NCBI GenBank assembly: GCA_963809805.1
Contig: CAWELB010000002.1
Span: 449,014-513,013 of the forward strand
Source of the DNA: an uncultured Chloroflexia bacterium
Lineage (GTDB): Bacteria > Chloroflexota > Anaerolineae > Anaerolineales > UBA4823
Direction of reading: 5' to 3'
Length of the DNA: 64,000 nt
The position numbers and the translations under genes are program-made. The notes under the pieces were generated by a model. That model was not told where the DNA came from, searched no databases, and saw only the letters and a program-made list of their open reading frames with translations. This document shows, in pieces, positions 12,240 to 58,123 of the stretch (position 1 is the first letter of the stretch; each line of letters starts with the position of its first letter).

Positions 12240-13454
12240 ATGCGCTCAGACATCCCGTTCCTGTTCGCCACCCGTATTATTCGCATGTTTGGATATGGCT
12301 TCTTATCGGTCGTATTGGCACTATACCTGGCACAGCGCGGTCTTTCAGAGGGCGAGATTGGCTTACTTCTCACCCTCACCCTGGCAGGTGACGCAGCCGT
12401 TACCCTGTGGCTCACCACTTCAGCGGACCGGATCGGCCGGCGGAGGATGCTGATCGTTGGGGCTGGGTTGATGATCATGGCAGGTGTGATCTTCAGCCTG
12501 ACGGGCAACTTCATCCTGCTGGTGGTGACCGCCATCATTGGGGTGATCAGTCCATCCGGGAATGAGATCGGTCCATTTCTCTCCATCGAACAAGCTGCCC
12601 TTTCCCAGCTCCTACCGGACGAAAAGCGCACCCAGATCTTTGCCTGGTACAACCTGGTGGGTTCCTTTGCCACCGCGACAGGCGCATTGGCAGGCGGTGG
12701 GTTGGCACAGCTTTTACAAGGCAGTGGCTACACCCCCCTGAATTCATACCGGGCGGTGGTGCTGGGATACACTCTGATCGGTGTGGTGCTAACCATCCTG
12801 TTCCTGAGGCTTTCGCAGGCGGTGGAAGCCCCCAAGCTGGTAGATGCTGTACCCATCCAGCGCAAGCTGGGGCTGCACAAATCGCGCGGGGTGGTGCTCA
12901 GGCTCTCGAGCCTGTTCGCCATCGATGCCTTCGCCGGTGGATTGGTGGTGCAGAGCATGGTGGCGTACTGGTTCAATATCAAATTCGGGGTTCAACCCGC
13001 CGTTTTGGGGAGCATCTTCTTCGGTGCCAACGTCCTGGCGGGGGTTTCTGCCCTGTCGGCGGCCTGGATCGCCAAACGCATCGGCCTGATCAACACGATG
13101 GTGTTCACCCACATCCCCTCCAACATCCTGCTCATCCTTGTGCCGTTCATGCCCACCCTGCCCCTGGCAATCGTGGCGCTCCTGCTCAGGTTTAGCATCT
13201 CACAAATGGATGTGCCGACCCGCCAATCGTATACCATGGCAGTGGTCAGTCCTGACGAGCGCTCGGCTGCCATGGGTGTGACCAGCATCTCCCGTTCGGT
13301 AGGGGCGACGCTTTCACCTGCCATCACCGGGCAGCTGCTGGCAGTTAGCAGCCTGATTGGGGCACCTTTTATGATCGCAGGTGGATTGAAGATCGTATAT
13401 GACCTGTTGGTATGGAGAGGTTTCAGGGCGGTAAAGCCACCGGAGGAGCGGTGA
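12240..13454 (+). CDS. MFS transporter
   Basis: About 12 TM helices. MFS loop 2-3 signature SADRIGRRRMLIVG. The ATG at 12240 avoids overlap with the CPBP gene; the track start 12150 is rejected. Confidence 0.85.
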   Translation: MRSDIPFLFATRIIRMFGYGFLSVVLALYLAQRGLSEGEIGLLLTLTLAGDAAVTLWLTTSADRIGRRRMLIVGAGLMIMAGVIFSLTGNFILLVVTAIIGVISPSGNEIGPFLSIEQAALSQLLPDEKRTQIFAWYNLVGSFATATGALAGGGLAQLLQGSGYTPLNSYRAVVLGYTLIGVVLTILFLRLSQAVEAPKLVDAVPIQRKLGLHKSRGVVLRLSSLFAIDAFAGGLVVQSMVAYWFNIKFGVQPAVLGSIFFGANVLAGVSALSAAWIAKRIGLINTMVFTHIPSNILLILVPFMPTLPLAIVALLLRFSISQMDVPTRQSYTMAVVSPDERSAAMGVTSISRSVGATLSPAITGQLLAVSSLIGAPFMIAGGLKIVYDLLVWRGFRAVKPPEER

Positions 13455-14528: not shown

Positions 14529-15851
14529 ATGCCCAAAGTTGCCCTGATATTCCCGTATTTCCGCACAAAGTCATCCACCGAGATGTTATTCCCACCGCTG
14601 GGGGCTGCCAGTCTTTTAGCACAGCTTAACCAGCGCCATATTGAAACGCGCATCTTTGATTGCACCTTCCAGACTTTTTCGCGGGTGGCAAAAGCACTCA
14701 TCGCCTACCAACCGGATATCGTGGGTGTCTCATCCATGATTTTATTGAGCCGGAATACCTTTCGTTTTGCCGAGCTGGTGCGCAGGCATCTGCCCGAGGC
14801 ATTACTGGTGGTGGGAGGTCCAATGCCCACACTGTACCCCGAGCGCTACAACGGAGCATTCGACCTGGTTTTCCGAGGCGAAGCTGACCTGAGTTTCCCG
14901 GATTTCTGCCAGGATTACTTTGCGAACCAGGCGGGTAGGAAGACATTGTATAAGCTCGACCTGGCAAAATATCCTGGCTTGTTTAGTCGCAACCTGGATG
15001 TCTCTGTGGATAACCCAATCATCCATTACAGCACACAGGAAATCCGCAATTTCCCGATCCCCGACCGGAGCCAATTCGATCATGCTTCTTATCAAAAAGC
15101 CTGGCTGGAAAAGAATGGCTCCCGCACCACTTCCATCATGATCACCCTAGGCTGCCCCTTCGATTGTGACTTTTGCTCACGTCCGGTATTCGGACACTTA
15201 TACCGGAAACGCAACCTTTTCGTGGTTTTCGAAGAGATCCGCCAGATCAAACAGCTGGGGTACGACCAACTGTGGATCGCCGATGATAATTTCACCCTGA
15301 ATTTATCCCTGTTGCGGCAGTTCTGCGAGCGCATGCTTGGCATGGAAATGAAGTGGAGCTGCCTGTCGCGCTCCACGGGCATCACCGAGGAGATAGCGAA
15401 GTTGATGAAGGCTTCAGGCTGCCAGAGGGTGTATTTGGGTCTAGAATCGGGCAGCGATGAAACATTGCGCCTGATGAATAAGAAAGCCACACTGGATGAT
15501 GCCATCCAGGCTGTGGATCATTTTCGTCAGGCGGGCATCGAAGTGGCAGCATTCTTTATTGTTGGATATCCGGGCGAGACGCCCGCGAGCATTGAACGAA
15601 CATTTAAGCTAGCACTCGAACTCCCCCTGAATGAAATCTCCTTCAATGTACCGTTTCCACTGCCGGGTTCGGCGCTTTTCGACCGGGTTAGCGGGATAGA
15701 CCCTGACAAGGACTGGAGCAAGGAGAATGACGTCACCTTTGTTTACAACTCAGAATTCGACCCCCTATGGCTGAAGCGCCGTATTCACCAGACGATGCGG
15801 GCATACAATCTACGCAACAGGCAATCCCCGGCACCCTTATCAGGGCTTTAG
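14529..15851 (+). CDS. B12-binding-domain radical SAM protein (class B)
   Basis: 440 aa. N-terminal Rossmann-like B12-binding region (KVALIFPYF...PPLGAASL). Radical SAM cluster motif CPFDCDFC. Paralogous to 15848..17230. Confidence 0.88.
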   Translation: MPKVALIFPYFRTKSSTEMLFPPLGAASLLAQLNQRHIETRIFDCTFQTFSRVAKALIAYQPDIVGVSSMILLSRNTFRFAELVRRHLPEALLVVGGPMPTLYPERYNGAFDLVFRGEADLSFPDFCQDYFANQAGRKTLYKLDLAKYPGLFSRNLDVSVDNPIIHYSTQEIRNFPIPDRSQFDHASYQKAWLEKNGSRTTSIMITLGCPFDCDFCSRPVFGHLYRKRNLFVVFEEIRQIKQLGYDQLWIADDNFTLNLSLLRQFCERMLGMEMKWSCLSRSTGITEEIAKLMKASGCQRVYLGLESGSDETLRLMNKKATLDDAIQAVDHFRQAGIEVAAFFIVGYPGETPASIERTFKLALELPLNEISFNVPFPLPGSALFDRVSGIDPDKDWSKENDVTFVYNSEFDPLWLKRRIHQTMRAYNLRNRQSPAPLSGL

Positions 15852-17230
15852 TGGAGCCGGATTAACAACCAGTCGGTGGTCGCTTCAAATAGTTTCAGGA
15901 TAAACGCTGCCAGTTTCCCCAACCTGCGTAATCTTCGTTTAATTTCAAACTGAGCCCGACCCTTGATGATCCCAAACCACATCTTGGTTTCTGAAAAGTC
16001 GGCATTATAGATGAGCACGTGGCTGCCGAACACACTATCACCCTGGTGCCAGTCGCGCTTGATCTGCCCTTTAACTCGTTCGTATAGTTTCGTACCGGGT
16101 AACGGGTATGGCATGGTCAGCCCGAGATAATCCAATGGCAGGGAGGTGGCGAAATGCAGTGTGTTCAACACGGTTTGATTGGTCTCACCAGGGTAGAAGA
16201 GGATGAAAAATGCGCCCACTTCCAACCCGGCCTGGTGAGCTGCCTGCACCGCCTGTCTTGCCTTCTCGGCGGAGATCTTCTTGTTCATCAGCTTCAATAC
16301 CGTGTCATCGCCTGATTCAATCCCGAAGTACACCCGCCTGCACCCTGCCCGGTACATCTCCACATACGTGGCGGCGTTGATTGAATCGACGCGCGCCAGG
16401 CATTCCCATTTGAACAGCAATTTCCTTTGCTTGATCTCCTCGCACACTTCCAACACCCTTTTTTGGCGCATCGTGAAGACGTCGTCCGCAAAGGAGATGC
16501 GGTCGTAGCCGAACGATAAAGCCTGCTCGATCTCATCCACCACATTCCTGGCGGAGCGCTCGCGGTAAGAGCCCCCAAATATGACGTTACTGCAAAACTC
16601 GCAGTCATAGGGGCAGCCGCGCGTGCTCATCACCGTGGTGATGGAGTAGCCGTATTGCTTTTGCCCAAATTGGATATAGCTTTTGTTCGGCAGCAGCTGA
16701 CGGGCAGGGAAGGGCAGACCGTCCAGGTTTTTATTGAAGGATCGATCAGGGTTGGTAATGGTCTTTGAAGATACCTTGCCTTCCACGATGTTCTTCTGCA
16801 AATAGGTGATGCCTGTGACGTGGCTGTAATCACCCCCAGCTGCATATGCCTGGAGCAGCTCCAGCGCCGTGTTTTCCCCTTCACCACGAACGACCACATC
16901 AAAATCTTCCACGAAGGCATGTGGGTCACAGGTGGCGAGCGGACCACCCACCAACAGCAAGCGGGCGCTGAGGCGCAGCTGCCTGGCAAGCCACAGGCAG
17001 TCATCCCGCATGGTCACCATGCAATAGAGACCCACCACTTCCGCGTGGGCGTCGAAAGCCTGTTGTAAAGCATCCGCTTTATTCATGAACGTACAATCAA
17101 TGATTTGCACTTCATGACCGGCTTCGAGCAGGCTGGATGCAAGATAGCTGACCCCCAGGGGTGGGAAGCGGAAGACCGAACGATCATTCGGAGGTCTGAA
17201 ATACGGGTAGATCAGCAATACCTTGCTCAT
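15848..17230 (-). CDS. B12-binding-domain radical SAM protein (class B), paralog
   Basis: 460 aa. KVLLIYPYF...PPLGVSYL, CPYDCEFC. Overlaps the next upstream gene by 4 nt. Its stop overlaps the stop of the convergent paralog. Confidence 0.88.
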   Translation of the reverse strand: MSKVLLIYPYFRPPNDRSVFRFPPLGVSYLASSLLEAGHEVQIIDCTFMNKADALQQAFDAHAEVVGLYCMVTMRDDCLWLARQLRLSARLLLVGGPLATCDPHAFVEDFDVVVRGEGENTALELLQAYAAGGDYSHVTGITYLQKNIVEGKVSSKTITNPDRSFNKNLDGLPFPARQLLPNKSYIQFGQKQYGYSITTVMSTRGCPYDCEFCSNVIFGGSYRERSARNVVDEIEQALSFGYDRISFADDVFTMRQKRVLEVCEEIKQRKLLFKWECLARVDSINAATYVEMYRAGCRRVYFGIESGDDTVLKLMNKKISAEKARQAVQAAHQAGLEVGAFFILFYPGETNQTVLNTLHFATSLPLDYLGLTMPYPLPGTKLYERVKGQIKRDWHQGDSVFGSHVLIYNADFSETKMWFGIIKGRAQFEIKRRLRRLGKLAAFILKLFEATTDWLLIRLH

Positions 17231-22074: not shown

Positions 22075-23576
22075 ATGACCGAAGATGAAAAAGAAGCCAA
22101 GAAAAGCGAAGCCTCCACACCTGCCTCACCCAAGGATGAGCTGGTGCAAACCCAACACAGCCTGACCATTGATGGGAGGGAGATCCGTTATACTGTCACC
22201 TGTGGGACGATGGTCTTAAAGAGGAGGCAGAAAAAAAGGGGGAGAAAGAAGGCGAGGCGGAAGGGGAAAAGCCACGTGCCACAATCTTCTTTGTCGCCTA
22301 CACGCGCGATGGGGTTGAGGACCGATCAAAGCGCCCGCTGACGTTCTCCTTCAATGGAGGGCCGGGGTCATCCTCCGTTTGGCTTCATCTCGGATTACTG
22401 GGTCCACGCCGGGTGTTGTTGGATGACGAAGGTTTTGCTTATCCACCGCCTTATAAGCTTGTCGATAATGCCTTCTCCCTGCTCGATCAGACTGACCTGG
22501 TGTTCATCGACCCGGTGAGCACGGGTTACAGCCGGGCAGTACCGGGCGAAAAACCCAAGCAATTTCATGGCTTCAAGAAGGATATTGAGTCGGTGGGTGA
22601 TTTTATCCGCCTTTACACTACACGTTATCAACGCTGGACCTCGCCCAAGTTCCTCATTGGTGAAAGTTATGGCACCACGCGTGCCGCTGGTCTCTCCGGC
22701 TACCTGCAAGATCGCCACGGGATGTACTTGAATGGGATCATGTTGATATCCTCCATCCTGAACTTCCAAACCGCAGACTTCCATACTGGCAATGATCTGC
22801 CATATATCCTGTTCCTGCCCACCTATACTGCCACAGCCTGGTATCACCACCGCCTCAGCGATGATCTGGAGAAAGACTTAGCTGCCACGCTGGTGGAAGT
22901 AGAGGCCTTCACCCTGGGTGATTATTCGCACGCCTTGATGCAGGGGGATGACCTCCAGGATGAAGAGCGTTTGCTCATCGCCCGGAAACTGGCTCGCTAC
23001 ACCGGCCTGTCGGAAGACTACATTGATCGCAATAATCTGCGCATTGAGATCTTCCGCTTCACCAAGGAATTACTGCGCCACGCCAAGCGTACCGTCGGCA
23101 GGCTGGATAGCCGTTTCAAGGGTATCGACAGGGATTCAGCCGGGGAGCATTTCGAATTCGACCCCAGCATGAACAACATCGGCGGTCCATATACTGCCAC
23201 ATTGAATGATTACGTGCGTGGGGAGCTTAAGTTCGAATCGGACTTGACCTATGAGATCCTGTCTGAGCGAGTGCATCCATGGAGTTATGCCGAATTTGAG
23301 AATGAGTATGTTAACGTTGCAGAGACGTTGCGCAAAGCCATCACTACCAACCCACACTTGAAAGTATACGTGGCAAATGGCTATTTTGACCTGGCGACGC
23401 CCTACCTGGCAACCCGCTATACCTTCAAGCATCTTGGATTGGACAAGTCATTAACTGGCAACCTGCGCATGGGTTATTTTGAAGCCGGGCATATGATGTA
23501 TATTCACATACCCTCCCTGGTCAAGCTGAAAGCTGAACTGGTGGATTTCATTAATTGGGCTATCCCAGGATCTTGA
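22075..23576 (+). pseudogene. Peptidase S10-family serine carboxypeptidase, reading frame interrupted
   Basis: The N-terminus (HSLTIDGREIRYTVTCGTMVLK) is in the frame of 22075. The rest is in the frame of 22413, which is open from about 22180: EEAEKKGEKEGEAEGEKPRATIFFVAYT...RPLTFSFNGGPGSSSVW...GESYGT. The shift lies between about 22215 and 22242, which includes the A7G5 tract at 22231-22242. Confidence 0.8.
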
Positions 23577-38473: not shown

Positions 38474-39013
38474 GTGAATCGGCAATTCTCATTCGTTACT
38501 GCTTTACTTTCTCTTGCGCTGGTATTGACTTCCTGCGATCTGCCTGTTTCCAGGTCCAGTCAGGATAGGTTGGAATTGGCCGAATTTACTGAGAGCTATG
38601 TGAATGTATCGATTATATTGGAACGAGCTGGTGAAGGTGAGACAGTCCTGAAAGCCACTTTCACTCCGACAGAGGAGGATGCTCACCTGTACAGCATGGA
38701 GCTGCCCAGAGAAGGGGTTGACGGGTTGGGCAGACCCACACTGATCGAGCTGCCCCCAGGGGCGAGCATGCAGGTGGCGGGTGACCTTCAAGAGAGCGTG
38801 TCCTCTGTGTTAGATGCGGTAGCGACTGACTTACCAGCCCTCCCGGTATATCCAAGCGGAGCAGTTACGTTGAGCCTGCCAGTCCTCCTTCCGGAGGCGG
38901 ATGGCGAGCTGGTCACCGATCAGCTGATGATCACTTATATGGCGTGTACACCCCGCGGCTGCCATAAACCGGTGCTAGCCAGGCTGGTGCAGGTGCAGGT
39001 TCCAACGAAATAA
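38474..39013 (+). CDS. Lipoprotein with DsbD-alpha-like (DsbD N-terminal / DsbC-corrector) domain
   Basis: Lipobox LTSC. AHLYSMELP...LIELPPG...LPVYPSGAVTLSLPVLL...LMITYMACTPRGCHKP follows the PF11412-type pattern (HlY ... P ... vyeG ... yqaC..xxC.pP) as I remember it. Confidence 0.55.
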   Translation: MNRQFSFVTALLSLALVLTSCDLPVSRSSQDRLELAEFTESYVNVSIILERAGEGETVLKATFTPTEEDAHLYSMELPREGVDGLGRPTLIELPPGASMQVAGDLQESVSSVLDAVATDLPALPVYPSGAVTLSLPVLLPEADGELVTDQLMITYMACTPRGCHKPVLARLVQVQVPTK

Positions 39014-39084
39014 CGCCGGTCGGCGGTAAAGCCCCTGACCGGCTTTCTACACAATGAGTATATTTGACTTATAAGGAGGATGTT

Positions 39085-39750
39085 GTGCAAAAGGAGCCAT
39101 TCCCGCGCTTCATATTATTGATCCTGATGACGATCATGATGCTGGTGGCGACCGGGTGCAAGGGGCAGGTTGACACCACCGCGCTGCAAGCCCCTCTATC
39201 CAGTGCCACCTTTACCAGTGTTCCTTCGACGGACACACCCATTCCACCCACGGATACCGCTATCCCTCCGACGGATACCGCTATCCCTCCCACGGATACG
39301 CGCATACCACCCACCAAGACCAGCACACCGCTTCCACCCACGCCGACGTCGGAAGTGCCATTCGTTTTCATCCGCATAGTGCCTTCGGCTGGCAGCCTTT
39401 CCGATCAGCTGGCAGTGGAAGTGGGGAAGGCAGAACAATCAGGTTTAACACCTGTAGTTTTGTTCGATGCCACGTGGTGACCTGCTTGCCAGGCGATTGC
39501 CGTGAGCATTCGAACACAAAACTCGTTGATGGAGGATGCATTCGAGGGGATGTATATTATCCAGGTGGATGTCGACGTGTGGGGGTTTCCTCCCGATGGT
39601 TGGGATTTTAAATACATCCCGGTCTTTTACGCATTGGATTCCAATGGCAATTCCACCGGCGAGATGATTGATGGTGGAGCATGGGGAGATAACATCCCGG
39701 AGAATATGGCACCCCCGCTCAAGGCTTTCTTTGAGAGCCTAAAACCCTGA
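39085..39750 (+). CDS. Thioredoxin-fold lipoprotein with in-frame TGA at the CxxC position (candidate selenoprotein, W-U-P-A-C)
   Basis: GTG 39085 lies 5 nt after the RBS aaggagg (track start TTG 39064). Lipobox ATGC. TDTxIPP x4 linker. VVLFDATW-TGA(39478-39480)-PACQAI...YIIQVDVD...KYIPVFYAL is a Trx fold with a cis-Pro. Track ORFs 39064..39480 and 39502..39750 are in the same frame. Confidence 0.6.
39229..39312 (+). repeat. 4 x 21-nt tandem repeat encoding a TDTxIPP linker
   Basis: acggacacacccattccaccc / acggataccgctatccctccg / acggataccgctatccctccc / acggatacgcgcataccaccc. Confidence 0.9.
39483..39508 (+). promoter_or_regulatory. SECIS-like stem-loop just 3' of the in-frame UGA
   Basis: UGCUUGC-(CA bulge)-GGC [GAUU] GCC-GUGAGCA. 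About 10 bp including two G-U pairs. The apical loop starts with G about 17 nt from the U of UGA. Confidence 0.4.
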
Positions 39751-39780: not shown

Positions 39781-39826
39781 AAAAGCCTGGTGCAAACGAT
39801 GCAGCCAGGCTTTTATATTCTTCTTC
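39781..39826. terminator. Bidirectional terminator between convergent genes
   Basis: Arms aaaagcctggtgca and tgcagccaggctttt with A-tract and T-tract flanks, followed by tatattcttctt. Confidence 0.7.
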
Positions 39827-39855: not shown

Positions 39856-40236
39856 TCAGTCTTTATCAAAGAACTCCAAAGCCTGTTTGACCAGAAACAC
39901 CGGCCACACCAGGGCTTTCAGGAAACCCATTACCTTTTCCTGAGTAGTGACACCCTTGTTCATGTAATAGATACATGCGCCGATAACACCCAGTCCATAG
40001 ACTGCCCCTGAATTCCCACCCTGTACTCGAACCTGGACACCTTTATCTTTTTCTTCCGTTGGTGCTATTTCATCTGTCATATTTGCTCCTGTCTGTTCAA
40101 TCCGAAACTGAGGTTGGTTGATGATGCCCATTAATACGTAATTGAATACATTCGTTAATTCATAACCCTGGTGCTTGATCCAAATCTGTGGCTGGTTAAT
40201 CAGGCCAAAGATCACGCTGTTGATTTGATTTCTCAT
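39856..40236 (-). CDS. Small hypothetical membrane protein with duplicated G(L/I)INQPQ motif
   Basis: The C-terminal part GNSGAVYGLGVIGACIYY...ALVWPVFLV is hydrophobic. The internal ATG at 40080 has a strong RBS (aggag, 5-nt spacer). The N-terminal extension contains a duplicated 11-aa motif with synonymous differences, so the long form may also be real. Confidence 0.55.
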   Translation of the reverse strand: MRNQINSVIFGLINQPQIWIKHQGYELTNVFNYVLMGIINQPQFRIEQTGANMTDEIAPTEEKDKGVQVRVQGGNSGAVYGLGVIGACIYYMNKGVTTQEKVMGFLKALVWPVFLVKQALEFFDKD

Positions 40237-41995: not shown

Positions 41996-42205
41996 ATGTC
42001 TGAAAGAATTATCGGCACAGTCAAATGGTTCAACGGGAGCAAGGGCTACGGTTTCTTGTCCCAGCCTGATGGCGCGGACGTCTTTGTCCACTACTCTGCG
42101 ATCCAATCTGACGGATACCGCACTCTCCAGGAAGGCCAGAAGGTGGAGTTCTCCATCGAGAAAGGCCCCAAGGGACTGCAGGCTGCCAACGTCATCCCTA
42201 TGTAA
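41996..42205 (+). CDS. Cold-shock protein (CspA family)
   Basis: 69 aa. [15 protein letters not shown] (RNP1) and VFVHYS (RNP2). Confidence 0.95.
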
Positions 42206-44797: not shown

Positions 44798-45484
44798 TTA
44801 TCGCCGCACTACGGGCATGAATACTGTTCCGACAAAAGGAGCGTAATATGCCACACGTAAGCCGCAGATCTGGTTGGCGATGTTATTCTCGGCAGGCAAG
44901 CCGGATAGGGCATATCCATAAAGGGAATTATCTACAGTTTCGGTGATTGCCTGGCTAACGGTAAAGCCAACACCACCAGAAAACTCAGCGGTTGAGCCAG
45001 CATAAACAATGTCTGCGAATGCGCCTCCAGGCTGGTATTTCGTGATAAATCCAAGCACAGAACTGTTGGGATTTGTGTCTTTATAGTACACCCGTAAATA
45101 CTTGATCACTGCATTTTCTGGGATATGTAATTCAGTATTTAATATTCTTTCACTACCTGCAGTGGTATGGGCGCAACCATTGCCATCATAGGTGAATTGC
45201 GTGGTGCTGGACCGCCCTCGCAAGGTTGCTCCGGTGACCTGGTAATAGGTGAAATTTGCAGATGGGCTGTTTACACCTGAAGTGGGGTTTTCATCCGGTG
45301 GAGAAATGTTTTGATAGGCTGGATCTCCACTGATATACGAGGGAGACATTTCTACAATTTCTCCTCCCGGCTCAGTGGCGGGCACGATTAATTGAGCGAG
45401 AACCTTTCCACCCAGGAGCAGCATAACCGCCATGACGATCACGATACCAATCTTCCAATACTTGTTCCTGTTGATCTGGTTCAT
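44798..45484 (-). CDS. Secreted/anchored hypothetical protein
   Basis: 228 aa. N-terminal anchor KIGIVIVMAVMLLLGG. RBS aaggagg upstream. No motif recognised. Confidence 0.65.
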   Translation of the reverse strand: MNQINRNKYWKIGIVIVMAVMLLLGGKVLAQLIVPATEPGGEIVEMSPSYISGDPAYQNISPPDENPTSGVNSPSANFTYYQVTGATLRGRSSTTQFTYDGNGCAHTTAGSERILNTELHIPENAVIKYLRVYYKDTNPNSSVLGFITKYQPGGAFADIVYAGSTAEFSGGVGFTVSQAITETVDNSLYGYALSGLPAENNIANQICGLRVAYYAPFVGTVFMPVVRR

Positions 45485-45910: not shown

Positions 45911-46657
45911 TTATAGAGGCACTTTCTTTGCCCCCGTAATGAGTGACGAATGGCGTGCCGGATCAAACGTCTCAAAGTACGATTCACCAATCGCTAATAG
46001 CCCTCGTTGAGGTATCCAGAAGTCTGCCAGATGAGCCTGAGGATGAACTGGTCCAGGTAGTCCGAGGTCTTCTCCAGCCAATACAGCTCGGCTGTCTGTG
46101 ATTGCCCATATTAAGCGCGGATTGGCTATGAATTGTTGTCTATTGGGGACACTTCCGTACATCCTGACGTGCCCTGCGCCTAACATCGGCCCTGCAATCA
46201 TTCCCATGGCTGCCAGGACCGCTGTGTTTTTCCATGCAGCTTTGGGAAGCATCCCCGCCATTGTGTTCATCAATCGTGTTGCTCCTGTCGGCCTGAGGCT
46301 TACTTCCCAATCCAGTGGTATCGCAGGGACGGCAACCCTGAAACGGAGCGGTGCATCCCACTTGATGTTAATCTCGGTTTGAATGAAGTCTGACGCTATA
46401 GCCCCGAAGTAACGCGGGCACGACTGGCGCGCGGGTGCGGTGGTGTAGAAAAACCACTCTCCAGCAGGATTGCGGTGCCACACAGAGGCATACCCTGGTC
46501 CGATGGAGGTGACCGTAAAGCGCCGCATAGCTAAGATGTGACCCGAAGTGAATGGGAGACCCATCCCCGCGTAACCGTTGAACCGTTCTTCAGACCCTGC
46601 TGGGAGTGTATGCATTGCTTCTAATTGCTCTACGAGTCCTTGAGGTTCCATGTTCAT
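45911..46657 (-). CDS. Hypothetical protein
   Basis: 248-aa ORF, last gene of a three-gene minus-strand unit. No motif recognised. Confidence 0.6.
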   Translation of the reverse strand: MNMEPQGLVEQLEAMHTLPAGSEERFNGYAGMGLPFTSGHILAMRRFTVTSIGPGYASVWHRNPAGEWFFYTTAPARQSCPRYFGAIASDFIQTEINIKWDAPLRFRVAVPAIPLDWEVSLRPTGATRLMNTMAGMLPKAAWKNTAVLAAMGMIAGPMLGAGHVRMYGSVPNRQQFIANPRLIWAITDSRAVLAGEDLGLPGPVHPQAHLADFWIPQRGLLAIGESYFETFDPARHSSLITGAKKVPL

Positions 46658-47088: not shown

Positions 47089-47796
47089 TTATTTTTTCAA
47101 TATGTAAAAAACCAATCCCTGGCCGTCGATTTGGTCCATTTTCAACAGCATGTTTCCAGAAAGTCGGCTCCAGGCTTCGATATCCTCCCTCGCAGAACTA
47201 TCGTCCACTCGGACTTCCAGTACCTGCCCGGAGTTCATTTCAACCAGTTTGTGCTTGATCAATGGTGTCAGAAGAGAACAGGTTGAACCTTGACCAGCGT
47301 TCGCGGTAAACTCCAACAGCGCATCAGCATGATGCCTCGATTCGGCTGGTGATATTGTGTATGTCGCTGAGGCGTTCACCAGGCTTATTGCGGGTGTGTC
47401 AGCCAGATCCTGGTCAGGTTGAAAACCACTGCAAATCAGCCTGAGCTGTTGTATCCGTCCTTCATAAACGGTGCAATATATTTGTTGTTCGATCGTGGAT
47501 GACACGCCATTCTCCCAACATCTATACCGGTAAAAAATTGCTAATTTCTCCCCCACCTTTGCCACGCGTACCTGTTCTTTTTCGATGGGATCGCAATCAC
47601 CGAACCAATCTTTAACCTTCTCGGTCAAGTCAATCGCGTTTTCCAACTGATAAATGCGGCTGGGCACCATCAGGATACTCTTGACATCTGGGTAGGAGAG
47701 CGTAGTCAGGTGGTTGAAATCCTTATCAAGGATCGCTTGAATCCATTCTTCACCCAGCTCCTGTACTGTCTTAACGTTCACCATTAATGCTTCCAT
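47089..47796 (-). CDS. Two-domain protein: NTF2/SnoaL-like N-terminus plus TusA/SirA-like C-terminus
   Basis: The C-terminal 75 aa align by eye to TusA: GSTCSLLTPLIKHKLVEMNSGQVLEVRVDDSSAREDIEAWSRLSGNMLL versus LRCPEPVMMVRKTV..M..GE.L...ADDP....DIP.F......L. The Cys is retained and the CPxP context is not. Confidence 0.5.
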   Translation of the reverse strand: MEALMVNVKTVQELGEEWIQAILDKDFNHLTTLSYPDVKSILMVPSRIYQLENAIDLTEKVKDWFGDCDPIEKEQVRVAKVGEKLAIFYRYRCWENGVSSTIEQQIYCTVYEGRIQQLRLICSGFQPDQDLADTPAISLVNASATYTISPAESRHHADALLEFTANAGQGSTCSLLTPLIKHKLVEMNSGQVLEVRVDDSSAREDIEAWSRLSGNMLLKMDQIDGQGLVFYILKK

Positions 47797-50787: not shown

Positions 50788-52155
50788 TTAGAGGATTGTG
50801 CCTACATTAAAAATGTCTGCCGGTAGTTCAATACCATTGATCGCAAATTTTTCAGCGAACTTCGGTCGCAGTCCAGTGGATTTCAATCCACCCATCACGC
50901 GCCCGTTTTGGATGCCAGTCTGCTCGAACAGGAACAGGTCCTGCATAATGATCGTATCACTCTCCATGCCCTGCACCTCGGCGACGTGAACCACTTTACG
51001 CGTCCCATCCCGCAGGCGCTCCATATGGACGATCAGCTCAATCGCGGATGATACCTGCTCACGAATGGCACGCAGGGGTAACTCAAACCCGGCCATCAAT
51101 ACCATCGTTTCAATACGGCGTAAGGTATCACGCGGACTGTTGGAGTGGATGGTGGTCATGGAGCCGTCATGACCGGTATTCATTGCCTGGAGCATATCCA
51201 GGGCTTCACCCCCGCGGGCCTCACCGACGATGATCCGATCGGGTCGCATACGCAAGGAGTTGATTACCAGCTGGCGGATGGTCACCTCCCCTTTGCCTTC
51301 CACATTCGAGGGTCGTTTCTCCAGCCGCCCAACATGCTCCTGCTTCAGCTGCAGCTCGGCAATGTCTTCAATCGTAATAATGCGTTCGTTAGTAGGGATG
51401 AATGCAGACACGACATTAAGCAGGGTGGTTTTCCCGGAGCCTGTGCCACCCGAGATGATCATGTTCACCCGGGCTTCTACGCAGGCTTTCAAAAAGTTGA
51501 CCAGCTGGCTGGTTATTGTGCCATTGGCTACCAGGTCTTGAGAGGTAAATGGTGTTTGTGAGAACTTGCGGATGGTCATCATCGGGCCAATCAGCGAAAG
51601 GGGTGGGATGATCACATTTACCCGGTATCCATTGGGTAAACGGGCATCTACCATCGGAGAGGATTCATCCACCCGTCTCCCCAACGGTGCTACGATGCGA
51701 TCGACAATCCGCATCAGGTGAGCTTCATTTTCGAAGGTGACCTTGGTTTTTTCTACTTTCCCATACCGTTCGACATAGATATTGTCGAAACCATTAACCA
51801 TTACTTCAGTGATGGTTGGTTCCTGCAGCAGGGGTTCTAATGGACCAAATCCCAGGATGTCGGCGATCACCCAATCTAACAATCGACTGCGGACAGCACG
51901 GGTATATAACAGATTTTCTTCGGTAAGCACCCGAGTGAACAAGGTTTCGATCATCTGGTGCATTTGCGGGATGTGCGATAGATCGACTTCGCCATCGGCT
52001 TCAGCCAATAGTCGTCTCTGTACCCGATCCCGGATCATATATGCATCGGCTGAAATCTGATCGCCTGCGCCGTCCTTCTTGGCTTCAGCCAATACATCAT
52101 AATCAGCCTGTGAAATTGGTCGTCCGTTTTTAGCCGGTCGATTCGTAAACATCAT
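50788..52155 (-). CDS. cpaF: CpaF/TadA-family type II/IV secretion ATPase
   Basis: 455 aa. Walker [10 protein letters not shown], Asp box, Walker B IIVGEARG, His box [11 protein letters not shown]. Confidence 0.93.
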
Positions 52156-52173
52156 GCCGTCTCCTGATTTTAC

Positions 52174-53922
52174 CTATGGAAGGGTTGGTATGATCAGCTG
52201 CGTATTGGGTGTCAACCGCGGCTGGTTATTCATATCATTAGCTGACAGGATAGCGGCTACCGTTGTGTTATAACGATGGGCGAGCATGGTCAGATAATCA
52301 CCGCTCTTCACCGTCACCACTACTGTCTGATCATATGCCTTCACCCGGTCATGGATCAATTTTTGATAGGCATAAAAAGCACTTTGATAGTCACCTGCAC
52401 CAGCAAGATAATCTGCATATACCAGGCTATCACTGAGGTTATTCTGTAATGCAACGATGCGTTCCCGTAATCCAATCGTATTCAACGCTTCCTGGTAGAT
52501 CTGCACAGCTTGTTGAAAATGGTTAAGTGATCCCTGTGCCTCGCCGATCATGATTTGGGCTTCGAAGGATAATGGTTCTGAGTCAGGTAATTGTTTAGCC
52601 AGGATGGCAGAGCGCTGAAAATCCTCCAGTGCCAGTGCGTATTCACCGGAGGCAACGAAATCCGATCCCCTGGCGATATAAGCATCGAACAGGGTTTGCA
52701 AGGCAGTTCCGTCTGCATATCCAGCATCTTGTCCGACCACATATTCAAGCTGCTCAATGACCGAATCCCACTTACTGCTGGAGAAATCGCTGATTGCTTG
52801 AACAAAAGTTTGTGCAAGCTGGAATTGGAGTAGAACGTTCGGGTCGTTCGGTCGCACAGCCAGTGCCAGAGAGAGGTATTGTTCTGCAGTTTTTTGTGCT
52901 TCCAATGAATCAGGTGAATTTGCCAGCGCCGCTTGCGCTTGACTGACATAATCATTGATAATTCCATCCTCAAGGACCATTCGAACCTGGGTTCGGGCTG
53001 CCAGGGCTTCACGATCCATGGGCTTGAGTGCCAGTGCCTGGCTGAAATAATTATCAACCTTTTTTAATATTTCTAAGGTTGGCACTGGTGAAAGTAGTAG
53101 TTCCTGAGCCGCCCTGATATAACTCTTGAATAAGTTTTCTTCAACATCGCTGGTTTTGAATGTTGGGTTCATGATGCGCAGCAATTCATAATTCGACACT
53201 GCATCCTCATAGCGGCCTTCAGAGAATGCCACCTGAGCTTGATCATACACACAAGTCATTTCCGATTGGGATTGCAAGCTCTGGATTTGTAATGACACAT
53301 CCCGATAATTTGGCATTTTCTGGCTGACTTGCTTTAGTATATCCAGGGCCTGGGCTGAATCGCCAAGCCTTAGCAGGTTCATTGCCTGGGTGTATTGAAC
53401 CTCAACATCTTTTAATAGTTGGGCACGCGTGATGGAATCGGCTAAACCAGGAAAGTCCGGTTTTTTGGCTTTGATCGCATCATAAGCTATTAAGGCTTCA
53501 TCGGGTTTACCTGCGATCATCAATTGTTGGGCATTATGCAATTCAATCGTCAACTCAGCCAGCTGCATATTCTGCGAAATATTTGATTGCGCTTTGGTTA
53601 ACTGTCCCTGAATCCAACCCGAGTATGTATATATGGCAGCGAAAGCGATGAGCAGGATTGCAACGGCTACTACAGTTCGTAGGCTGATTTTCCTAAGGCT
53701 TCGCATCCGGTTCCGGCGATTTTCTTCCAACTCATAGTCAGATATGCGTGAACGGACTTCCATTTCCTGCCGAATAGCCCTTAGGTCAGGTTCCATGGGG
53801 AAGTTTTTCTCTGCATCTGCTAATTTTAAGAAGCCTTCAATCCATCTTCCGACCCGAAAATGTCCCATGGCCTCATGGAATGACGGGGAATTCATAAAAG
53901 ATTCTGATTTACTCGAACTCAT
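52174..53922 (-). CDS. Membrane-anchored TPR-repeat protein with C-terminal LysM domain
   Basis: ATG 53922 follows the RBS ggaggt (track start 53952). One TM helix (VVAVAILLIAFAAIY). Long TPR-like repeats. C-terminal VKSGDYLTMLAHRYNTTVAAILSANDM...LTPNTQLIIP matches the LysM consensus. Confidence 0.8.
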   Translation of the reverse strand: MSSSKSESFMNSPSFHEAMGHFRVGRWIEGFLKLADAEKNFPMEPDLRAIRQEMEVRSRISDYELEENRRNRMRSLRKISLRTVVAVAILLIAFAAIYTYSGWIQGQLTKAQSNISQNMQLAELTIELHNAQQLMIAGKPDEALIAYDAIKAKKPDFPGLADSITRAQLLKDVEVQYTQAMNLLRLGDSAQALDILKQVSQKMPNYRDVSLQIQSLQSQSEMTCVYDQAQVAFSEGRYEDAVSNYELLRIMNPTFKTSDVEENLFKSYIRAAQELLLSPVPTLEILKKVDNYFSQALALKPMDREALAARTQVRMVLEDGIINDYVSQAQAALANSPDSLEAQKTAEQYLSLALAVRPNDPNVLLQFQLAQTFVQAISDFSSSKWDSVIEQLEYVVGQDAGYADGTALQTLFDAYIARGSDFVASGEYALALEDFQRSAILAKQLPDSEPLSFEAQIMIGEAQGSLNHFQQAVQIYQEALNTIGLRERIVALQNNLSDSLVYADYLAGAGDYQSAFYAYQKLIHDRVKAYDQTVVVTVKSGDYLTMLAHRYNTTVAAILSANDMNNQPRLTPNTQLIIPTLP

Positions 53923-53970
53923 GTTACCTCCAAAGATCCTTTGACCATCCACACGAGCAGGTATTCATAT

Positions 53971-54921
53971 CTATTTGGCACCGAATACATCCATCAATGA
54001 TGGTACGGCGGGGCCAAGGATAACTGCAAGTAGCGCAGGAAAGATTAATAATGCCATCGGGATGAGCATCTTGATTGGGGCTTTCTGTGCCTGTTCCTGT
54101 GCCCGAAACCGGCGCTCGATCCGCATTTGTTCCGCCTGGGAGTGCAAGGTATCACTGATGCTCATACCCAATTGTTCGGTCTGTAGGATCAAGGCTACGA
54201 AGCTGGCAATTTCGCGAATTTCCAGCCTATCCGACAGGTTCCTTAATGCATCCCGGCGGGTTAATCCCATTTCCATTTCATTGATCACTCGTCCAAACTC
54301 ATGACCAATTGGAGTGTCCCAATGCTCACTCACCCTTTGTAATGACTGGTCAAATCCCAACCCGGCAGTGGCGCACACACTGAGCATGTCTAATGCGTCA
54401 GGCAGGCCTTTTCGAACTCGATTCTGCCTATTATTTACCCGGCTTTGCAGCCATCCTTTTGGTAAATAATATAGTAGGATCAGGATTAATATGCTTAGCA
54501 GCACATTTACGGTTGTGGTTCCTCGCTGTATCACTAAAAATGCCAGGTATACTCCCAATAATGTCGAGGCCATACTTATGCCATAAAATTCCCTGGCTCC
54601 CAAATTCATTGGATTACCTGCAATGAGTAATTTTTTTGCCAGGTTCTCAATCGAAGACGCAGGGGTGATGCGGCCAAATAATCGCCCGACCCATCGAACA
54701 GCTGGGATGATGGTGCGGCTGACAAAAGAGCCAGTGATCTGTCTGGGTTGCATCCGCACTGCATTCGCTTTAGTTTGGAGCCCTTCCAATGGCGTTTCGA
54801 CATATTGCACCAGGCGTTTACTCAAGTTACCTGATCTCAACCAGCGCAGACTCAGAAATAGCACGGATATTCCTAAGATACCCAATACGATACTGATCGT
54901 GATTTGCATGATTAGCTGCAT
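53971..54921 (-). CDS. tadC: Type II secretion system F-family protein (TadC-like)
   Basis: 316 aa. T2SSF core (LPDALDMLSVCATAGLGFDQSL) with flanking TM helices. Confidence 0.85.
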   Translation of the reverse strand: MQLIMQITISIVLGILGISVLFLSLRWLRSGNLSKRLVQYVETPLEGLQTKANAVRMQPRQITGSFVSRTIIPAVRWVGRLFGRITPASSIENLAKKLLIAGNPMNLGAREFYGISMASTLLGVYLAFLVIQRGTTTVNVLLSILILILLYYLPKGWLQSRVNNRQNRVRKGLPDALDMLSVCATAGLGFDQSLQRVSEHWDTPIGHEFGRVINEMEMGLTRRDALRNLSDRLEIREIASFVALILQTEQLGMSISDTLHSQAEQMRIERRFRAQEQAQKAPIKMLIPMALLIFPALLAVILGPAVPSLMDVFGAK

Positions 54922-54931
54922 TGAGCTATCC

Positions 54932-55912
54932 TCACACTTCGATCTTGGCTAAACGCCGGACCGCAAAGTTACCCGCGATGATCATAATAACTGCTCCAAT
55001 TGGAATGCACAATATTTGTGGTTCAAACAAGCGCATCATATATTCAGGATTAATAAAAAATAGGGCAGCTGCCATGGCAACCGGCATAAAAGTGAGTACA
55101 TAACTGCCAAACCTTTGCTGAGCCGTGAGCACACGCACCTCTGCGAATAATCGAACCCGCTCACGAATTGTCTCAGTAACCGCCTCCAACATAGTGACGA
55201 TATTCCCACCTACCTGCGAGTTGATGTTGATTGCAGTAACCGCCAGATAAAGATCATCATTTTCCATTCTGGCGACCAGGTTGGTGAGTGCCTGGCTTAA
55301 AGATAATCCGAGACCGATTTCATGCCGTACGCGTCGAAATTCGTCTGAGGCTGGTGCTTTCAATTCCTTACTCACTACCTCAATAGCCTGCGGCAAGCTG
55401 TACCCTGCCCTGACGGCACCTGTCATCAGGATCAGCACATCCACGAGCTGCTTCCCAAAATTCATCTGCCGTTGTGATATCGCGCGTCTCAACAATAGTT
55501 CTGGGACGAAGAACACGATCACAGCCAGACCAATCCCTGACACAACCATTCTGGAGATCAGCATACCCAGGGCGAATGCTACAATGACGCCAATTATTCG
55601 GATCAGCACAAATTCTGTCTCAGTAATCGGCCAATTTGCGCTGATTAACTGAAGGTTGAGTTTCTCAGACGCCAATCCGGATAACATATTGTTCATTCGT
55701 AGCCGCAAGCGCACCAGGCCTACGCGCCGTCTTTTTCCGATTTGGGTTATATCTGTTTCATCGGGCAAGGACACATAATTTGCCAACCGTGATCCGATAT
55801 CCTGGCCGGCGAAGAATACATCCCGTAGACCATAGATCACCAACCCATATGCCATCAGGATGATGACCACAATTCCAAGGACTACAGCGATAAGGACGGT
55901 AAAAGAGGACAT
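54932..55912 (-). CDS. tadB: Type II secretion system F-family protein (TadB-like)
   Basis: 326 aa. T2SSF core (QLVDVLILMTGAVRAGYSLPQAI) with flanking TM helices. Confidence 0.85.
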   Translation of the reverse strand: MSSFTVLIAVVLGIVVIILMAYGLVIYGLRDVFFAGQDIGSRLANYVSLPDETDITQIGKRRRVGLVRLRLRMNNMLSGLASEKLNLQLISANWPITETEFVLIRIIGVIVAFALGMLISRMVVSGIGLAVIVFFVPELLLRRAISQRQMNFGKQLVDVLILMTGAVRAGYSLPQAIEVVSKELKAPASDEFRRVRHEIGLGLSLSQALTNLVARMENDDLYLAVTAININSQVGGNIVTMLEAVTETIRERVRLFAEVRVLTAQQRFGSYVLTFMPVAMAAALFFINPEYMMRLFEPQILCIPIGAVIMIIAGNFAVRRLAKIEV

Positions 55913-55941
55913 TCAGTAAATCCTATTCCTGCTGCATGTTA

Positions 55942-57198
55942 TTATCCAAGGCGGCTTGAAGCAAGCAACAGGTCTCGATTGGCCTTGTCTCCAGGTAGGG
56001 CGACTGGCTCATGACCAGCCTCTCTCAGGTTGATCGCTACCAGGTTGCGAGCAAGTTGCTGGACGGATTTGCTGGCACTACTTCTTGGATAATAAACCAG
56101 GAATGGAATTCCCCGGTTGATACTTCGCAGTACGTTCGCCGGGTCATTAGCAATTTGATGATAAATCTGATTATGAAGGACGGCTTCGATGTCTTTAAGC
56201 TTGACCCCACCTTCTGAGCCAGCCTTATTCAGGATCATTAATATTTTTTCTGCGGGGTAAGAAAGTGACCTGCTAAGTTGTAAGAATCGGCTGGTATCAT
56301 GCAGCGATGCCAGGTCTGGTGTAGTCATCAGCAGAATTCGGTCGGTAGCATCCATTAACGTCACGGAGATATCATTCAATGGTCCGCCTGCATCCACGAC
56401 GATGTAATCATAATATCGGGAAACCCCAATAAAAATGTTATAGATATCCTCAGCCCGGATTCCCTGTGCGATCTGGGCATTCGCTGGAGCCAGCAGTACA
56501 TGGATCCCGGAAGGATGAGGGCATACTACGTCTCGAATCAAGTTCTCATCCAGGTTTGACGCATGCGGAATTAAATCGGATAGTGCATTTTGAACTTTCA
56601 AATTCAGCATCACTTCCAAATGACCAAAAAACACTTTTCCTTCGAATAAAAGCACCTTCTTTCCAGTTTCTTCAGCCAGGGCGATGGCGGTATTAGCTGC
56701 AATCGATGTGACACCTGTGCCTCCGCGCGGGCTGTAAAACGTAACCGAGCGTAGCGGGCGGGTGGCTTCTGGTAATTGCGACGGGATGTATGCCTGCGAT
56801 TGAATCCTGCGTCCTTCCAGCTCGGTCACCCTGCGCAATGTGCTGAGTAGATTGATCTGTGAAAATGGCGTGATCAAGAATGCCCGTGCTCCAGCCAACA
56901 TCACCTGCTGCGCAACCAATGGATCATTCGTGGGCAAAATTGCTACGATGGCTGCGGTAGGGAATTGGAGCGCCAGGTCATCAATAATATCCATGGTGGA
57001 TTCGCTTCCAAGCTGAGAATCCACCAGCAAGATGTCGGGCTCGGCAGCCCGTATTTGCCTTACCAACATCTCCTTGGAAGATAAAATATCTGCCAGGGTA
57101 AACTCATTTTCAATAGCAAGCGCTTCGGTGATTTGTTGCAGGGTTGCTCCGGGGTCACACAACGCGACCACTCGAATTTGTTTGTTTGCTGGGCTCAT
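55942..57198 (-). CDS. cpaE: CpaE/TadZ-like protein: receiver-like N-domain plus ParA/MinD-type ATPase
   Basis: 418 aa. REC-like region IRVVALCD...DILLVDSQL...AGARAFLITPF. Deviant Walker A region YSPRGGTGVTSIAANTAIALA. Confidence 0.8.
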   Translation of the reverse strand: MSPANKQIRVVALCDPGATLQQITEALAIENEFTLADILSSKEMLVRQIRAAEPDILLVDSQLGSESTMDIIDDLALQFPTAAIVAILPTNDPLVAQQVMLAGARAFLITPFSQINLLSTLRRVTELEGRRIQSQAYIPSQLPEATRPLRSVTFYSPRGGTGVTSIAANTAIALAEETGKKVLLFEGKVFFGHLEVMLNLKVQNALSDLIPHASNLDENLIRDVVCPHPSGIHVLLAPANAQIAQGIRAEDIYNIFIGVSRYYDYIVVDAGGPLNDISVTLMDATDRILLMTTPDLASLHDTSRFLQLSRSLSYPAEKILMILNKAGSEGGVKLKDIEAVLHNQIYHQIANDPANVLRSINRGIPFLVYYPRSSASKSVQQLARNLVAINLREAGHEPVALPGDKANRDLLLASSRLG

Positions 57199-57271
57199 GC
57201 GATCACACCTCTATTATCGATCATTAGATTTTGCATATCTTTGCCGATCAACGAATAATTCTCCCATCTTC

Positions 57272-58123
57272 CTACCTGGGAATGGTTAGATTATAGCGCT
57301 GTAATAAATATTCTTCGGTTACAGGGCTGATGTCAAACAGCTCGTTCGAAGTAGGTGAGCGCAGGACGATATCAAACTGTGCTCCGGAATCCCTGAGGTT
57401 TTTCAGTACCAATGCATCCTGTGCATTGAGTGCCAGCAAGTATGCTTTAACTGTCACATTCGCAGGGTTTGGCGTGGGTTGAGCTCCACCCTGGAGTGGA
57501 GTGCTTGAGCCGGATTCAGCCACCACTTCAACCACGGTGGCGGTTAATTGAATGCGCTGAAATGCATCAAAGGTGAACATGCGTTGAATCTGTTGTTCTT
57601 GTTGTGAGCCGGTCCCGACGCCTGGAGTGGTGAGCGTTGGGCTGACTTCTACTGACAGCGATACAAATATGTCAATATTGTCTCCGCGTTGTAAGACACC
57701 TAACCCGCTCATTAAATCGCTCGCTGGGAACGCCATCAATACCTGGTCATCTGCGATGATATATCCCACGTCATGCGAAACATTGGTTGGGTCAGCCAGA
57801 TGATGCTGCAGCACCATCTCTCCCTGGATCAAATGGGCGACGGCAATTTTACCCAGTGCAGCCTCGATCGTCTGCAGGGCATCCCGCGGTACCAGGCTCA
57901 GGGGGACTGAGGCGAGTTGAACGTCCTCGCGATTTAAAACTGCACCAACCGCCAGGTCATGGCTGGTAATGACGATATCCGTAGTCGCTTCAACGAATGG
58001 GGTTGGTTGTGCCGGGGGATTAAAGCTTTGCTTAAGCACGCGGTTAATTGCTACGATGCCGAGCCCAATCAGGCCGACACCCACAACAGCTATCAAGATT
58101 CCGATAAGCACTCGACGGTTCAA
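57272..58123 (-). CDS. cpaB: Flp pilus assembly protein CpaB/RcpC (SAF domain)
   Basis: TTG start 8 nt after the RBS aggaggg. N-terminal TM helix. ITSHDLAVGAVLNREDVQLASVP is SAF-like. C-terminal beta-rich region. Confidence 0.8.
   Translation of the reverse strand: MNRRVLIGILIAVVGVGLIGLGIVAINRVLKQSFNPPAQPTPFVEATTDIVITSHDLAVGAVLNREDVQLASVPLSLVPRDALQTIEAALGKIAVAHLIQGEMVLQHHLADPTNVSHDVGYIIADDQVLMAFPASDLMSGLGVLQRGDNIDIFVSLSVEVSPTLTTPGVGTGSQQEQQIQRMFTFDAFQRIQLTATVVEVVAESGSSTPLQGGAQPTPNPANVTVKAYLLALNAQDALVLKNLRDSGAQFDIVLRSPTSNELFDISPVTEEYLLQRYNLTIPR

Follow-up and report, generated by a model that had tools for sequence, protein, structure and literature searches.

We analysed a 64,000-nucleotide stretch of DNA (the window) from an uncultured Chloroflexia bacterium (GenBank assembly GCA_963809805.1, contig CAWELB010000002.1, positions 449,014 to 513,013), which carries a gene for a thioredoxin-like protein interrupted by a TGA codon. 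Two open-reading frames (ORFs) on the forward strand, at 39064..39480 and 39502..39750, share one frame and are parted only by the TGA at 39478-39480, as an earlier note made from the same letters had described, and translation through this codon yields a product (...VVLFDATW-*-PACQAIAVSI...KYIPVFYALD...AWGDNIPENMAPPLKAFFESLKP) which ends at the TGA at 39748-39750. The earlier note offered three readings of the inner TGA, a selenoprotein, a pseudogene or a base-call error; comparison with related loci indicates that the gene is very probably a genuine UGA-encoded selenoprotein with a thioredoxin fold and a membrane anchor.

The complete gene would span 39085..39750 on the forward strand, comprising 221 codons with one UGA for selenocysteine (Sec) and a true stop at 39748-39750, an architecture also found in relatives. 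The earlier note had opened the frame at the TTG at 39064; the frame itself stands, whilst translation likely starts instead at the GTG at 39085-39087, which follows a Shine-Dalgarno sequence (AAGGAGG, 39073..39079) at a distance of 5 nucleotides (nt). The N-terminus (MQKEPFPRFILLILMTIMMLVATG-C) is a lipoprotein-type signal peptide (39085..39159), with L-V-A-T-G-C read as its lipobox, and the aligned full-length homologues also possess a signal peptide with a Cys at the position of Cys25, the residue at which we infer the thioredoxin-like protein to be lipidated. A Pro/Thr-rich linker joins this membrane anchor to the redox domain and contains a 21-nt tandem repeat in 4.1 copies (39229..39314, Tandem Repeats Finder, 78% matches) which encodes PPTDTxI. 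Repeat number and linker length vary among relatives.

The redox domain (133 residues, 39349..39747) spans the UGA, which occupies the nucleophilic first position of a W-U-P-A-C motif. The resolving Cys of this UxxC motif (39487..39489) is an invariant column (C47) in the protein alignment, as is the Pro of I-P-V (39619..39621, column P91), which the earlier note had correctly placed at the cis-Pro position of thioredoxins and which presumably adopts the cis conformation. The most conserved stretch of the family is the signature AWGDNIPENMAPPLKAFF (39679..39732), which leads into and forms the C-terminal helix. With Cys substituted for the UGA residue, the product passes the Pfam Thioredoxin model (PF00085) marginally, at 25.4 bits against a cutoff of 23.5, and many of its Cys homologues match the same model. 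AlphaFold2 predicts a single thioredoxin fold for the 133-residue domain (predicted local distance difference test (pLDDT) score 95.6, predicted template modelling score 0.89), in which the UGA residue (44 in the model) sits between a strand (34-40) and a helix (46-55); because of this position neither half is a domain alone, and the earlier proposal of one fold assembled by read-through from two incomplete halves is thereby borne out. Amongst PDB structures Foldseek ranks classical thioredoxins highest (template modelling (TM) scores 0.55-0.73), from which the protein differs in sharing 15-24% identity with them and in barely exceeding the PF00085 cutoff. Amongst NCBIfam models, the best similarities of the thioredoxin-like domain are to DsbD-type C-terminal domains, all far under their cutoffs.

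Conservation of the UGA codon and selection along the gene

Protein searches recovered full-length homologues of 170-200 amino acids (aa) at 40-57% identity, whilst the closest matches (55-79% identity) were fragments of 73-82 aa covering the C-terminal half only. At all 14 of the loci behind the closest fragment matches, an in-frame TGA occupies this same column (W-*-P-[A/C/Y]-C), the halves on either side of it being open and conserved, and the order of genes is conserved as glnA, a 179-aa gene, the thioredoxin-like gene, an alaX-like gene and a cold-shock gene. We then used the C-terminal signature AWG[DE]NIPE / NMAPP, which is neutral to Sec versus Cys, to probe collections of genomes and metagenomes, and obtained 141 loci with a recognisable motif, amongst which the UGA column holds TGA in ~25 distinct forms and a Cys codon (TGC/TGT) in ~104 distinct forms, with no TAA or TAG at this column in any of the 141; the 'TAG' and 'GCx' classes returned there by the regular expression were misfires. 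The homologues thus bear out the earlier suggestion that the TGA stands in place of the nucleophilic first Cys.

The TGA forms come from independent assemblies and samples, share roughly 50-80% protein identity, and were found in six named Chloroflexota metagenome-assembled genomes (MAGs; L015, L017, L018, L019, L023 and L024), whilst the Cys forms extend to Myxococcota, Gammaproteobacteria, Planctomycetota and other phyla. Assemblies with UGA forms include PHBU01 (HGW-Chloroflexi-6), DIXA01 (UBA6092), CAVZSS01, JAKLPV01, JACRBL01 and JAEWVF01, and JASGIA01 is one of the sister MAGs with a Cys form. A neighbour-joining tree places every UGA form within one 40-leaf clade, alongside 13 interspersed Cys forms, and such interchange of Sec and Cys is typical for selenoprotein families (PMC1794560). 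Recurrence of an in-frame TGA at one column in ~25 distinct relatives is beyond chance.

Selection was measured as the ratio of non-synonymous to synonymous divergence (pN/pS) in 16 sequences of the window's clade, and was 0.42 upstream of the UGA, 0.27 in codons +1 to +4 and 0.22 in the rest of the downstream region. Synonymous divergence in this clade is near saturation (pS 0.65-0.72) and pN/pS is low, which shows that selection acts on the region past the UGA and that this region is translated in frame. The earlier note had named relatives with the same TGA and a decayed downstream half as an observation that would speak against a selenoprotein, and the downstream ratio shows that the relatives are not so. 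The earliest in-frame start candidates past the UGA (39502, 39526 and 39529) lack a Shine-Dalgarno sequence, and the only terminator-like hairpin of the gene lies after 39750.

Three further observations concern individual homologues and motifs. One homologue (L160:534, metagenome contig WBZO01020340.1) reads W-A-Q-P-C, with Ala at the first redox residue and the resolving Cys alone kept. Two sequences taken up as possible decayed copies (L066:6001-6388 and L078:6001-6382) proved to be Cys forms from MFD-series MAGs with one frameshift each past the motif; these frameshifts are probably assembly indel errors and have no bearing on the UGA forms. A scan of the window for other in-frame TGA codons in CxxU or UxxC context gave no convincing candidate, and the same scan over all loci was swamped by noise from non-coding frames.

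RNA elements downstream of the UGA

Bacterial Sec insertion sequence (SECIS) elements were judged by four published criteria (PMC13188914): an upper stem of 4-16 base pairs (bp) capped by a loop of 3-9 nt; a G at loop position 1 or 2, usually with G or U after it; a distance of 16-37 nt from the UGA to the apical loop; and an energy of -7.5 kcal/mol or lower. Positions within the RNA are numbered with the U of the UGA as 1. The UGA forms fall into three downstream sequence types (A, B and C), each of them monophyletic, and the clade of the window is type A.

In type A a 19-nt block, GCGAUUGCCGUGAGCAUUC (39493..39511, nt 16-34), consists of invariant alignment columns. At each of codons +5 to +10 (39493-39510), 17-18 of 18 sequences have one and the same codon although the degeneracy is 3- to 6-fold, whilst 3-4 codons are in use for residues of equal conservation elsewhere in the gene, and pS across these six codons is 0.000 versus the near-saturated values found elsewhere in the gene. 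Coinciding with the invariant block is a 19-nt hairpin (39494..39512), with pairs C-G, G-C and A-U, a U.U mismatch, pairs U-A, G-C and C-G, and the loop C-G-U-G-A (39501-39505). Its pairing is retained in 97.6% of alignment cells (14 sequences), and the divergent L024 keeps it by a one-base shift which turns the mismatch into a bulged U. Loop size (5 nt), loop G and spacing (20 nt) all lie within the published ranges. We regard this hairpin as the best candidate for a SECIS core in the window's clade, which fits the conservation better than the hairpin put forward earlier.

That hairpin (39483..39508) does exist, and at -11.2 kcal/mol it is, in the window's own sequence, the most stable local fold of this stretch and essentially its minimum-energy fold, yet it is poorly conserved: across the clade its energy spans -11.2 to +6.0 kcal/mol, 71% of cells are paired, and 6 of its 10 pairs, which depend on third-codon positions that vary freely, fail to form in several relatives. 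The earlier note had likened it to the general layout of a bacterial SECIS, with the loop about 17 nt from the UGA. The measured spacing is 14 nt, which falls outside the published range, as does the 3-bp upper stem; the loop (G-A-U-U) has a G without a following G or U, and the energy threshold is reached in the window but not in most relatives. As a conserved SECIS this hairpin was rejected on its broken pairs, spacing and upper stem, and the conserved element overlaps it, centred a few nt further 3' (39493-39512). The expectation that a stem-loop should be conserved among TGA-containing homologues therefore fails for 39483-39508 and holds for other hairpins.

In the sister clades (types B and C) a hairpin at nt 21-39 with the loop A-G-U-Y-U is paired in 97% of cells, and 4 of its pairs show compensatory changes. 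None of 500 shuffles matches the observed pairing or covariation score, and sliding the 3' partners by 1-3 columns as a control lowers pairing to 28-43%. This hairpin lies within all four published limits: its loop is 24-25 nt from the UGA, its stems have 7-9 bp and its energies run from -8 to -12 kcal/mol, the energy threshold being reached by 8 of the 9 hairpins of the sister clades. The two elements also differ in their distribution: the canonical hairpin (nt 21-39) pairs in 97% of cells in types B/C and 43% in type A, versus 41% and 94%, respectively, for the 19-nt hairpin. Amongst the Cys forms, those of the sister clade (n=13) pair at 43% for the canonical and 12% for the 19-nt hairpin, and the others (n=91) at 35% for both, and an intact canonical hairpin was found in 0 of 104 Cys forms. 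The downstream RNA hairpins are specific to the UGA forms.

The minimal SECIS of E. coli fdhF is 17 nt long and starts 11 nt after the UGA, with a bulged U17 and with G23 and U24 in the loop (PMC8659212). The 19-nt hairpin of the window's clade resembles it in starting 13 nt past the UGA, in an unpaired U on the 5' strand and in a G-U at loop positions 2-3, but has a U.U mismatch instead of the bulged U.

Probable selenocysteine insertion and rival explanations

On this evidence the 39085-39750 region would be one gene, encoding an extracytoplasmic, lipid-anchored oxidoreductase of the thioredoxin fold with the active site W-U-P-A-C, and its UGA at 39478-39480 would be decoded as Sec. The signal would be an mRNA element directly 3' of the codon, within 39493-39512, which by analogy with characterised bacteria may recruit SelB with Sec-tRNA(Sec) to the ribosome. 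A selenolate would then take the place of the nucleophilic thiolate in the CxxC motif, and oxidation would join it to the Cys at 39487-39489 in a selenenyl-sulfide. Conserved TGA, selection on both halves, Cys-containing homologues and RNA constraint confined to UGA forms together support the earlier proposal of a UxxC thioredoxin-like selenoprotein.

A number of results pull the other way. The 19-nt hairpin misses two of the four criteria, its upper stem of 3 bp and energy of -5.7 kcal/mol placing it outside the consensus SECIS in stem and energy, if not in its loop, and covariation cannot choose among three folds of type A because the 39493-39511 region is invariant; the third of these is a weak fold with zero covariation returned by RNAalifold for nt -9 to +71. 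Rfam at gathering scores yields only cspA in the window, and permissive Rfam scans of the SECIS region gave chance-level matches only. Bulk downstream folding energy does not differ between UGA and Cys forms (p = 0.85 overall, 0.21 GC-matched), a comparison which we discarded as a test, the Cys forms being richer in GC. In the 64-kb window ARAGORN detected no tRNA at all, and no tRNA-Sec was present in the window and 163 loci; likewise, neither the window nor ~1 Mb of related loci gave a tblastn match to E. coli SelA (a query 100% identical to PDB 8uzw), SelB or SelD. The genes selA, selB and selD and the gene for tRNA-Sec are rarely linked to selenoprotein genes, hence their absence near the locus is uninformative. 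The top 120 matches to Aquifex SelA in a database search came only from Aquificota and Nitrospirae, and nothing was found in the literature on Sec use specific to Anaerolineae.

Two of these results lend some weight to a read-through without Sec, in which a near-cognate tRNA, favoured by the hairpin, inserts Trp, Cys or Arg, or in which UGA is partly reassigned; Sec machinery was not found in the loci searched, and the type A hairpin lies outside strict bacterial SECIS criteria. We consider this improbable. The UGA sits exactly at the redox-active Cys column of the homologues, the hallmark of Sec/Cys pairs, and the sister clades display a textbook SECIS loop and spacing. TGA also terminates 10 of the 40 long ORFs in the window, including those ending at 13452-13454 and 23574-23576, which the earlier note had rightly cited as normal TGA stops, and a reassigned genetic code is ruled out on this count. 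Moreover, Sec users are known in Chloroflexota, with 46-49 selenoprotein genes in Dehalococcoidia (PMC13326102) and three selenoproteins in Chloroflexi genomes (PMC1794560), and NCBIfam curates a Roseiflexus-type family of thioredoxin-like (seleno)lipoproteins.

A true split gene, with a stop at the UGA, a restart downstream and two polypeptides which together form one thioredoxin fold, is less probable still. In-frame GTG, TTG and ATG codons do follow the UGA (at 39502, 39526 and 39529), and gene callers annotate a separate 73-82-aa downstream ORF, but the start codons chosen differ among relatives and, as noted, have no Shine-Dalgarno sequence in the window. Codons +1 to +4 (P-A-C-Q), which lie ahead of any such start, evolve as coding sequence (pS 0.65), and two separate chains would leave the active site without its nucleophile and the C-terminal fragment without a signal peptide for export. 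The least probable reading is that a TGC-to-TGA step or a miscall inactivated an ordinary CxxC gene. TGA is one substitution from TGC, and in all database records the gene has been divided in two by gene callers; however, the same codon recurs across independent assemblies in sequences so divergent that the loci are not copies of a single contaminating sequence, purifying selection downstream is at least as strong as upstream, and a decaying gene would not carry an invariant RNA block or a covarying hairpin seen with TGA alone. The pseudogene and base-call error alternatives of the earlier note are refuted by this conservation.

The partner lipoprotein, related systems and neighbouring genes

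Directly upstream of the selenoprotein gene lies a gene for a 179-aa lipoprotein resembling a DsbD N-terminal domain (38474..39013, forward strand), which occupies this position in 15 of 15 UGA-form loci with enough flanking sequence. It also stands beside the Chloroflexota Cys forms, but not beside copies in other phyla. The partner protein has a lipoprotein signal and an invariant C158-x4-C163-x-x-P-V motif (Cys158, 38945-38947; Cys163, 38960-38962), and 12 of 35 of its close homologues match Pfam DsbD_N (PF11412; best E-value 2.4e-6). Its AlphaFold2 model is an all-beta domain (pLDDT 91.3), which Foldseek places closest to DsbD N-terminal domains from Neisseria and E. coli (6dnv, 6dps and 1jzd_C; E-values 1.5e-4 to 8e-4, TM scores 0.51-0.60).

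Because the partner is DsbD_N-like and the thioredoxin-like domain is nearest to DsbD C-terminal domains, the two genes look like a stand-alone, lipid-anchored counterpart of DsbD gamma and alpha. The cassette may equally well be or not be an extracytoplasmic DsbD-like redox relay, and by analogy with DsbD the two proteins would act as partners, with electrons flowing in the corresponding direction. In its most likely role the relay would perform one thiol/selenol-disulfide electron step at the outer side of the membrane, equivalent to the gamma-to-alpha step of DsbD, and would pass reducing equivalents outside the membrane with Sec as the attacking nucleophile. Two negative findings count against this role: the window's own copy of the partner has no Pfam match at E ≤ 0.01 and no NCBIfam match, and the window holds no CcdA or DsbD membrane component.

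Like DsbD, the cassette combines a thioredoxin-like domain of CxxC type, here standing alone, with a predicted immunoglobulin-like domain bearing a Cys pair near its C-terminus, and both of its proteins carry export and lipid-anchor signals, a feature that recalls CcdA-dependent, extracytoplasmic thioredoxin-like lipoproteins such as ResA and StoA. Unlike in DsbD, the domains are separate lipoproteins which are not fused to a membrane domain, with no beta/CcdA gene nearby, the Cys pair is C-x4-C, and the thioredoxin-like partner uses, in our reading, Sec.

Amongst bacterial selenoproteins the thioredoxin-fold UxxC kind is the commonest, and includes Trx (PF00085, e.g. in Treponema denticola), thiol:disulfide interchange protein (PF13098), and DsbA-like, thiol-disulfide isomerase-like and Redoxin-family forms (PMC13188914). 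The window protein would share with these the Sec at the N-terminal nucleophilic position of a CxxC-type motif, where a helix of the thioredoxin fold begins, the replacement of Sec by Cys in homologues, and a SECIS within the coding sequence directly after the UGA. It departs from them in being a lipoprotein, in its long Pro/Thr linker and in the family-specific AWGDNIPENMAPPLK motif, and none of the selenoprotein-specific NCBIfam models reaches its cutoff on it. The nearest in kind is NF041057 (the Rcas_1661 family), an NCBIfam-curated family named after a Roseiflexus (Chloroflexota) locus tag, which appears as 'DsbG-like protein' in PMC13188914 and is likewise a thioredoxin-like (seleno)lipoprotein with UxxC. 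Membership was rejected, however, as the window protein scores 12.7 bits against a cutoff of 190, with only its signal peptide and linker (residues 14-85) matched and not the redox domain, and it belongs to a different family.

Judged against the NCBIfam models, the family or subfamily appears to be uncatalogued, whilst the kind of protein is already known. More tentatively, and with somewhat less confidence than in the relay itself, we suggest that it may be an uncatalogued Sec family of lipid-anchored, stand-alone DsbD gamma counterparts which in Chloroflexota always lie beside an alpha-like lipoprotein, forming a 'split DsbD' selenol/thiol relay at the cell surface, and in which two SECIS architectures, one of them a minimal 19-nt hairpin that breaks the rules, have evolved within one orthologous family. 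The records of the UGA clade are all split into two 'hypothetical proteins', and recognising the Sec codon would correct the annotation of a widespread Chloroflexota gene and would add to the prokaryotic selenoproteome a thioredoxin-fold family with no dedicated NCBIfam model. The fixed pairing with a DsbD-N-like lipoprotein offers a testable hypothesis for extracytoplasmic redox in Anaerolineae-type bacteria, the UGA and Cys forms interspersed in one clade offer a natural comparison of Sec and Cys on the same scaffold, and the invariant, sub-threshold hairpin is a test case for SECIS predictors, where strict rules reject what comparative evidence supports as recoding. The general picture of selenoprotein function is unchanged and no new mechanism is implied.

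Past the true stop of the selenoprotein gene, and between convergent genes, lies the intrinsic-terminator-like hairpin mentioned above, with a U-run (about 39781..39814, forward strand); the 80 nt past 39750 fold at -29.3 kcal/mol (RNAfold), and a consensus terminator scan made no call for this hairpin. A 126-aa ORF on the reverse strand (39856-40236), with no Pfam or NCBIfam match, is convergent with the selenoprotein gene and appears to share the hairpin with it. Further downstream, the cold-shock-domain gene (41996-42205), which belongs to the conserved gene order, is spanned by an Rfam match to the cspA thermoregulator (RF01766, 41901-42262, forward strand) at 87.9 bits, above gathering, which is notable for an apparent Chloroflexota genome. 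A 235-aa protein encoded on the reverse strand (47089-47796) carries a TusA domain at its C-terminus, whilst its N-terminal part is unannotated; it was considered for a connection with selenium metabolism and set aside, nothing specific having been found, and neither of the neighbouring genes (44798-45484 and 45911-46657) has a family match. Elsewhere in the window, two radical SAM genes with B12-binding domains (14529-15851, forward; 15848-17230, reverse) are convergent and overlap beside glycosyltransferase genes, and a Tad/type IV pilus-like secretion cluster on the reverse strand (50788-58123) comprises a T2SSE ATPase, two T2SSF genes, a TPR-LysM protein, a ParA-like response regulator and a SAF-domain protein, and is conserved downstream in the related contig L002.

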